Source: a virus
Taxonomy: Duplodnaviria; Heunggongvirae; Uroviricota; Caudoviricetes
Length of the DNA: 6,334 nt
Strand: one strand, 5' to 3'
Virus record (IMG/VR): IMGVR_UViG_2734482594_000010
Below the pieces are notes generated by a model that was given only the letters and a program-made list of their open reading frames with translations, did not search any database and was not told the DNA's origin. Below, one piece after another: positions 5,736 to 6,020 of the stretch. Both the position numbers and the translations under genes were made by a program. Numbering within the stretch: position 1 is the first letter of the stretch; each line of letters starts with the position of its first letter.

Positions 5736-5811
5736 GGCCCTTTAGCTCAGTGGTGAGAGCGAGCGACTCATAATCGCCAGGTCGCTGGTTCAAATCCAGC
5801 AAGGGCCACCA
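5736..5811 (+). tRNA. tRNA with anticodon CAU (5769..5771), ileZ/ileX-like (tRNA-Ile2 read via lysidine, or tRNA-Met), encoded CCA end
   Basis: Cloverleaf read by hand: acceptor GGCCCTT/AAGGGCC, D-stem GCTC/GAGC, T-stem GCTGG/CCAGC with TTCAAAT loop, anticodon loop CTCATAA, discriminator A plus CCA. Close to E. coli ileX as recalled. One A-C mismatch at the top of the anticodon stem. Confidence 0.8.
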
Positions 5812-5818
5812 TCACATA

Positions 5819-5854
5819 CCGCCATTAGCTCATCAGGAAAGAGCGCCAGCCTTC
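5819..5854 (+). tRNA. 5' portion of a tRNA-Arg-like gene (anticodon loop begins CTTC..., consistent with UCU), truncated by the N run
   Basis: T8-A9, D-stem GCTC/GAGC with 9-nt D-loop, anticodon stem 5' arm CCAGC and loop start CTTC parallel E. coli argU as recalled. Begins 7 nt after the previous tRNA, as in the ileZ-argN-argO cluster of Stx phages. 3' half missing, and the first base is C. Confidence 0.4.
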
Positions 5855-5895
5855 NNNNNNNNNNNNNNNNNNNNNNNNNNNNNNNNNNNNNNNNN
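5855..5895. other. Run of 41 N: assembly or scaffold gap of unknown true length
   Basis: Literal n characters in the sequence. Confidence 0.95.
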
Positions 5896-6020
5896 GAATC
5901 CCCCTGTGCGGAGGGGCAATCAGCGAGTAGGTATATGGGATAATCGCGGATTCAGGTGCTGGTACTGAATTCACCGGGAGGCACCCGGCATCATGCAATG
6001 GCACATAGCGCCACTCTCCA

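Follow-up and report, generated by a model that had tools for sequence, protein, structure and literature searches.

A gapped ileZ-argN-argO tRNA cluster followed by an STnc100-family sRNA in the Q-to-lysis region of a lambdoid, most likely stx-free prophage

The window, i.e., the whole stretch of 6,334 nucleotides that was analysed, is best explained as the Q-to-lysis part of an E. coli or Shigella prophage that is lambdoid, Stx-phage-like and most likely stx-free, and in which a gapped ileZ-argN-argO tRNA cluster is followed by an sRNA of the STnc100 family. We put the probability of this reading at about 85%. The gene order would be antiterminator Q, DNA methylase, ileZ (CAU), argN (UCG), argO (UCU) and then the STnc100-family sRNA, and the short-read scaffold gap would remove everything from the third anticodon base of argN through nucleotide 36 of the sRNA. 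The features readable in the window are listed in Table 1.

Table 1. Positions of the features in the window, with the evidence for each.
Feature	Position	Strand	Evidence or remark
DUF968	1807-2865		
RusA	2866-3246		
Antiterminator Q	3243..4064	+	Pfam PF03589, 179 bits
Terminator-like hairpins after Q	4145-4164, 4473-4490		Terminator scan
N6/N4 DNA methyltransferase, directly upstream of the tRNA cluster	4637..5695	+	Pfam PF01555, 144 bits
Sigma-70 promoter-like site, TTGAAG-17 nt-TATTAT	5698..5726	+	Promoter scan
ileZ, complete 76-nt tRNA, anticodon CAU, encoded CCA end	5736..5811	+	ARAGORN, Rfam tRNA
argN, 5' 36 nt, tRNA-Arg(UCG)	5819..5854	+	36/36 identity to relatives
Scaffold gap, 41 N	5855..5895	.	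243 bp there in L077
STnc100-family sRNA, 3' 154 nt	5896..6049	+	Rfam RF02076, cmscan
Hairpin CCCCT / loop GTGCGG / AGGGG	5901..5916	+	Rfam structure line pairs exactly these bases
sRNA intrinsic terminator, AGCCCTCTCCGGAGGGGCT then TTTCTGTG (T-rich)	6020..6046	+	Terminator scan of identical L042 sequence
IS600 end, window stops inside	6229..6334	+	179 nt after the sRNA

The tRNA cluster and its CAU tRNA

ARAGORN called a single tRNA in the window, namely ileZ (plus strand, anticodon CAT), which scores 72.5 bits against the Rfam tRNA model RF00005 (E 6e-15, gathering score 29). A 7-nt spacer (TCACATA, 5812-5818) separates it from half of a tRNA-Arg gene, which reads CCGCCATTAGCTCATCAGGAAAGAGCGCCAGCCTTC and is identical at all 36 positions to the 5' part of the 77-nt tRNA-Arg(UCG) genes of L042, L077 and other related contigs. 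An earlier note on this DNA had described a complete CAU tRNA followed 7 nt later by the 5' half of a tRNA-Arg that runs into the N run, and the ARAGORN and Rfam calls together with the argN identity bear this description out. The readable part of argN covers the 5' strand of the acceptor stem, the D arm, the 5' strand of the anticodon stem and the loop up to the second anticodon base. Its final base before the gap is argN nucleotide 36, the middle base of the anticodon, i.e., U34 and C35 are readable and G36, the third anticodon base, falls in the gap. The anticodon of this argN is UCG as read by homology only.

The gene names come from GenBank records of Stx-type phages that match the cluster in a BLAST search of phage records, Lahn2 (AM072972.1) and Nil3 (AM051322.1), and the identical cluster in RefSeq E. 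coli genomes is annotated tRNA-Ile, tRNA-Arg, tRNA-Arg. The ileZ-argN-argO arrangement that the earlier note had named thus agrees with both the gene names and the RefSeq annotation. Since the CAU tRNA resembles ileX, the cluster in the window is the rare-codon tRNA cluster ileZ-argN-argO, which is already known from lambdoid and Stx-type prophages. A search of the open-access literature found no paper on ileZ, argN or argO, and the names therefore rest on the GenBank annotations. The argN word GCTCATCAGGAAAGAGCGCCAGCCTTC had no match in a genome contig collection that holds one genome per species, so this result carries little weight.

The Stx-type phages 933W, VT2phi_272, Lahn2 and Nil3 carry the cluster with the same gene order, the same spacing and the same location after Q and a DNA methylase as in the window, and in these phages, as here, it lies upstream of the stx site and the lysis genes. 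The left flank of the gap (the end of the methylase gene, ileZ and the 5' half of argN) shows approximately 92-93% identity to Stx2 phages, compared with 99-100% to stx-free prophages. Unlike the clusters of Stx phages, the window has no readable argO or second half of argN, and no stx is inferred. The argN alleles also differ, as the D loop in the window has an A (GGAAAG) where the Stx phage cluster has T or C; this variant is common and was found in 119 IMG/VR contigs.

A further argN allele is widespread, as seen in L001 (6220-6296) and many other IMG/VR contigs, where the fill starts GAAGCTGGTTGCGCGGAGTTCGGGTCCCCGAAGGCGG. This allele has an A/C mismatch in the T stem and an A/A mismatch in the acceptor stem, and it scores 43.7 bits on the tRNA model, compared with 58 bits for the allele inferred here. 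The gene argN may be decaying in many prophages.

The CAU anticodon of ileZ can belong to either tRNA-Ile2 or tRNA-Met, and its sequence is much closer to the former, with 68 of 76 positions (89.5%) shared with K-12 ileX against 52 of 77 (67.5%) with metT/metU. The acceptor-stem pairs C4-G69 and C5-G68 are TilS determinants, and both are present in ileZ. RefSeq annotates the same gene as tRNA-Ile. The ileX-like sequence and the two retained pairs indicate an ileX-type tRNA-Ile2 and not a tRNA-Met, which would read AUA after the predicted lysidine modification of C34. With K-12 ileX/ileY, whose CAU tRNA-Ile2 is lysidine-modified, ileZ has in common the anticodon loop CUCAUAA as well as C4-G69 and C5-G68. 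It differs from K-12 ileX by eight substitutions, which include a compensated pair at 6-67 (U-A for C-G), and its anticodon stem has A27/C43 compared with G27-U43 in ileX. This first anticodon-stem pair (window positions 5762 and 5778; tRNA positions 27 and 43) is flagged as non-canonical by Rfam, and the A27/C43 combination is kept in all copies seen, including that of the Stx2 phage.

Length and content of the scaffold gap

The run of 41 N is the only one in the window, and its content was approached through related contigs in IMG/VR. A 27-nt word of argN, taken up to the edge of the gap, occurs in 119 contigs, and 109 of these also contain the right-hand word GAATCCCCCTGTGCGGAGGGG, with which the sequence resumes after the gap (5896-5916). 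The distance from the argN word to GAATCCCCCTGTGCGGAGGGG is 241-245 nt in 97 of the 109 contigs, 863 nt in six, 934-1004 nt in four, 1573 nt in one, which carries stx2, and 2388 nt in one; it is 41 nt in none of them.

The contig L077 (IMGVR_UViG_2869953405_000008) matches the whole window, with a single mismatch in the 5854 nt to the left of the gap (1-5854) and none in the 439 nt to the right (5896-6334), and the two have the IS600 junction at 6229 in common. Exactly where the window has its 41 N, L077 has 243 bp. The same 243-bp fill is present in five more contigs (L042, L066, L069, L116 and the second copy in L112), whose flanks are identical to those of the window over the 1000 nt before and the 333 nt after the gap. 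The claim of the earlier note that the gap hides more than 41 bp is thus confirmed by L077 and by five other contigs with identical compared flanks. The same note had considered a chimeric scaffold that joins unrelated sequences, and this has to be abandoned, as seven independent contigs have the two flanks as contiguous neighbours, with 0 mismatches (1000 nt left, 333 nt right). The scaffold join is genuine, not chimeric, and it is the stated gap length that is wrong.

The fill starts with argN nucleotides 37-77 (41 nt), followed by a 13-nt spacer, the 77-nt argO tRNA-Arg(UCU) and 14 nt. Thereafter come a hairpin like that of an intrinsic terminator, GGCTCGC-TTTT-GCGGGCC with T8, and approximately 36 nt, before the STnc100 homologue begins, with its first 36 nt inside the fill. 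ARAGORN called both Arg(tcg) and Arg(tct) in L077. The gene argO, which starts about 13 nt after argN and falls within the N run here, is present in L077 and in the five contigs with identical compared flanks. Most likely, the gap therefore does not hide 41 bp but approximately 243 bp, comprising the remainder of argN, argO with its terminator, and the 5' end of the sRNA with the region before it, a content that is inferred from other assemblies and not read in this one.

It is unlikely that the gap instead hides a longer rearranged stretch, such as an IS in argN with a second ileZ/argO module, the variant that contains a DUF3927 gene, or tandem modules. Such arrangements do exist among the relatives: in L037, the compared flanks and the IS600 junction are identical to those of the window with 2388 bp between them, the flank words are 863-1004 bp apart in 10 of the 109 contigs (the DUF3927-gene-containing variant), and L112 and L042 pack two or three tRNA/STnc100 modules into a few kb, where tandem repeats would also account for a short-read assembly break at the gap. 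However, the only contig that matches the entire window, L077, has 243 bp, and where the flanks are at least 99% identical to those of the window, the adjacent copy is 241-243 bp away in nine of ten contigs. In addition, the insertion in L037 begins 27 nt past the left contig end of the window, and the break is therefore not at that IS boundary.

The tandem modules consist of a methylase fragment, the tRNA cluster and STnc100, and occur in two or three copies within a few kb (L042, 4286-8286; L112, 1739-7746), with differing STnc100 alleles. In L042 and L001, a second STnc100 copy lies directly before the sialate esterase gene. Such repeated modules probably explain why short-read assemblies break at this place.

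A very unlikely possibility is that the gap hides a cargo cassette (stx or another moron) between the argO terminator and the upstream region of STnc100, or that it is a true-size deletion fusion of argN and the sRNA. In either case, if true, a known locus would show a new arrangement in a Shigella-like lineage that bears IS600.

The position of stx in related phages is relevant here, as the gap covers it. In the Stx2 phage VT2phi_272 (L005), the tRNAs occupy 4136-4387, stx2A 4478-5437, stx2B 5449-5718 and STnc100 5793-5998, i.e., the stx2AB cassette of Stx2 phages lies between argO and STnc100, in the stretch hidden by the gap in the window. When the stx-free fill is aligned to the Stx2 phage (L042 7534-7660 against L005 4388-4480 and 5719-5830), the two match up to the argO terminator and again from ...TGTCACAATTCAG..TTGACAGTTG. 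Judged from this alignment, the stx-free sequence represents a clean 'empty site' for stx2AB; the junction falls upstream of the sRNA, after the argO terminator and before TGTCACAATTCAG.

The readable window has no similarity to stx. Since the gap spans the stx insertion point, the remark in the earlier note that no stx-like start follows says nothing by itself, and toxin status is unreadable from the window because the gap covers the place of the Shiga toxin genes in related phages. The relatives are more informative. No contig whose flanks have at least 98.5% identity to those of the window carries stx, and the prophage is most likely stx-free, as inferred from these relatives for a site that is itself inside the gap. 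That the window comes from an Stx-converting prophage, in which the gap would hide argO and an stx operon of approximately 1.57 kb, is highly improbable. Although the gap spans the exact insertion point, and L082 has both the 27-nt argN word and the 21-nt right-hand word with 1573 bp between them that include stx2AB at 98.8% identity, no other contig carries stx2 between these words. The flanks of L082 and those of L005 resemble the window over short stretches only (for L082, 94% across 114 nt on the left side and 75% across 106 nt on the right; for L005, 92% across 272 nt and 94% across 31 nt), and the stated gap of 41 would be off by 1.5 kb. A deliberate masking of a toxin gene by the N run was also considered and rejected, because stx2 can be read in L082 and a run of 41 nt is much too short for such a gene.

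It is barely credible that the gap is true to size, so that a complete argN would abut a 5'-truncated STnc100 in a deletion variant without argO and its terminator. The arithmetic fits this reading, since 5819 + 77 - 1 = 5895 is the last N. However, this spacing was not seen in any of the 109 IMG/VR contigs that contain both flank words, and a direct pattern scan of IMG/VR for 26-56 nt between the words gave 0 matches. A synthetic 41-nt junction, in which argN was completed with 41 nt and joined to GAATCC, gave only split matches with approximately 200 extra bases; this junction is absent among the best 30 matches listed of 5,426 complete E. coli genomes, a scope in which a rarer variant is possible. 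Nor was any repeat seen that would yield such a deletion.

The number of N is the exact number of bases missing from the 77-nt argN, which we treat as a coincidence; despite this match, the gap site is 241 bp or longer in every related contig examined. No deletion mechanism or masking rule was found that explains it. Recombination that leaves 41 nt was considered both between argN and argO, which share GCCTTC, and between the argO T loop GGTTCGAATCC and GGTGAATCC. Neither reproduces the observed flanks.

The STnc100-family sRNA after the gap

The earlier note had read the sequence to the right of the gap as the tail of another tRNA or as a plain hairpin (CCCCT/AGGGG). The hairpin stands, now as a stem-loop of the sRNA STnc100, while the tRNA tail falls, as no tRNA is called there. 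Because 5896-6049 matches Rfam STnc100 (RF02076, model positions 37-206) with an E value of 7.5e-14 in cmscan (69.8 bits, gathering score 47), the CCCCT/AGGGG stem is far above chance. Its strands, CCCCT at 5901-5905 and AGGGG at 5912-5916, form the first internal stem-loop of STnc100. The window holds the 3' three-quarters of the sRNA, and the 5' 36 nt are inside the gap. A complete 190-nt copy in L042 scores 123.6 bits, and the portion of it outside the gap is identical to the window. The terminator of the sRNA was found at 7770-7788 in L042 and is the counterpart of the terminal hairpin in the Rfam model.

In the gap-free relatives, ...AAAGAAACTGGCATGGT precedes GAATCC and offers no partner for a tRNA T stem or acceptor stem, and neither ARAGORN nor the Rfam tRNA model found a tRNA at the post-gap stretch GAATCCCCC in these relatives. 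The post-gap hairpin thus belongs to the prophage sRNA STnc100 and not to a tRNA. To the proposal that the stretch is the 3' end of a further tRNA (T loop, T stem and acceptor, with no encoded CCA) we give next to no credence, as GAAT-CCCCC-TGTGCGG-A does divide into the lengths of a T-loop end, T stem and acceptor, but ...CTGGCATGGT precedes it in all gap-free relatives without strands that match CCCCC and TGTGCGG, no tRNA is called, and the stretch aligns to STnc100 with its own pairing partners.

Folding of the complete sRNA copy as a single sequence was uninformative (z = -0.54), and membership in the STnc100 family therefore rests on the covariance model. A candidate sRNA promoter with TTGACA only approximately 12 nt before the start of the Rfam model was not adopted, and no convincing -10 hexamer follows it.

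The prophage sRNA STnc100 is multi-copy, and EDL933 has eleven copies of it; copies are transcribed in EHEC and one has been confirmed by Northern blot (PMC5331693). The Hfq-binding sRNA EcOnc27 overlaps an STnc100 copy downstream of stx2B (PMC12711010), and STnc100 has been found in outer-membrane vesicles (PMC12370729). The published STnc100 qPCR primer CATGGTGAATCCCCCTGTGC (PMC12370729) spans the site of the hairpin and the edge of the gap in the window. The prophage sRNA STnc100 is also related to PasD, for which a shared ancestry has been proposed (bioRxiv 10.64898/2026.05.13.724894). Like this STnc100/EcOnc27/PasD family, the sRNA in the window has a covariance match above the gathering score and ends at an intrinsic terminator. 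The shared setting is upstream of a sialate esterase gene and lysis genes; in Stx2 phages, the sRNA lies 75 nt after stx2B. The alleles differ, since the window has the 190-nt variant (123.6 bits for the complete copy), compared with 207.7 bits for the stx2-linked copy.

Two observations concern the neighbourhood of the sRNA. A second, sub-threshold STnc100-like match at 6088-6276 (21.8 bits, E 0.15) extends as far as the IS600 end and into it, and is probably a remnant or a chance match. In L005, the anti-sRNA AsxR (RF02703, 88 bits) lies at 6000-6052 on the minus strand, directly after STnc100 of this Stx2 phage; AsxR has no match in the window.

Genomic context, codon use and significance

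The methylase gene upstream of the cluster is annotated as a DNA-methyltransferase in relatives of the window. The promoter-like site that follows overlaps its stop codon and ends 9 nt before ileZ. It is the only match in 3900-5854 and is also found in L042, and the Stx2 phage VT2phi_272 retains the TATTAT hexamer (TTGCAG-17-TATTAT). As the count of promoter-like sites in the window is not above that of shuffled sequence, the site at 5698-5726 is a putative promoter.

At the right end of the window, similarity to relatives without the IS ends at 6228. Of 5426 E. coli genomes, 2887 have features annotated as 'IS3-like element IS600 family transposase' that match 6215-6334. The IS600 junction is common to L077, L069, L037 and L112, and it is absent from the best-listed matches in complete E. 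coli genomes. This junction hints at a source in Shigella or in an IS600-rich E. coli.

In the left part of the window there is a hok/sok type I toxin-antitoxin locus, with sok at 904-1079 (Rfam, 112.4 bits) and a mok/hok ORF at 1017-1229; hokD is annotated at the corresponding place in relatives of the window. Just downstream of hok, an isrK-like match at 1238-1319 scores 25.7 bits, below the gathering score of 50, and overlaps a weaker rsmX match. It is probably due to chance.

The codons that the three tRNAs would read are used more often in the genes of the window than in the K-12 sample, which is small. Per 1000 codons, AUA occurs 13.2 times in the window genes, 2.4 times in the K-12 sample and 36.6 times in stx2AB; AGA and AGG together occur 10.6 times in the window genes and 0 times in the K-12 sample, and CGG 13.9 and 4.0 times, respectively. 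The tRNAs encoded downstream of Q in lambdoid phages have been proposed to supply codons that the phage uses more than its host (PMC3636060), and codon use in the window would fit such a supplementation of rare codons. The tRNA genes of SfI, Sf6, P22-like phages and phage 21 have the same location downstream of Q and the same proposed role, although they encode Asn and Thr tRNAs compared with Ile2 and two Arg tRNAs in the window.

A mechanism can be proposed from established knowledge of phage tRNAs, and it is consistent with the codon counts here. The three tRNAs would read AUA, CGA/CGG and AGA/AGG, codons expected to be rare in the host, frequent in phage genes and extremely so in stx, where this is present. 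They may be transcribed from the promoter-like site just upstream of ileZ and, after induction, also by read-through of Q-modified polymerase from the late promoter, whereas unmodified polymerase would stop at the argO terminator. Host RNases would process the tRNA transcripts, and the STnc100 sRNA would end at its own terminator at 6020-6046.

The tRNA cluster, the STnc100 sRNA and the late-region location of the cluster in lambdoid prophages have all been described already, and the findings have little biological consequence. What matters is that the length of the scaffold gap is misleading, with approximately 243 bp in place of 41, and that the argO tRNA gene and the start of the sRNA are missing from the assembly. 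The useful corrections thus concern what the gap contains, the assignment of the post-gap hairpin to STnc100, and the caveat on toxin status.
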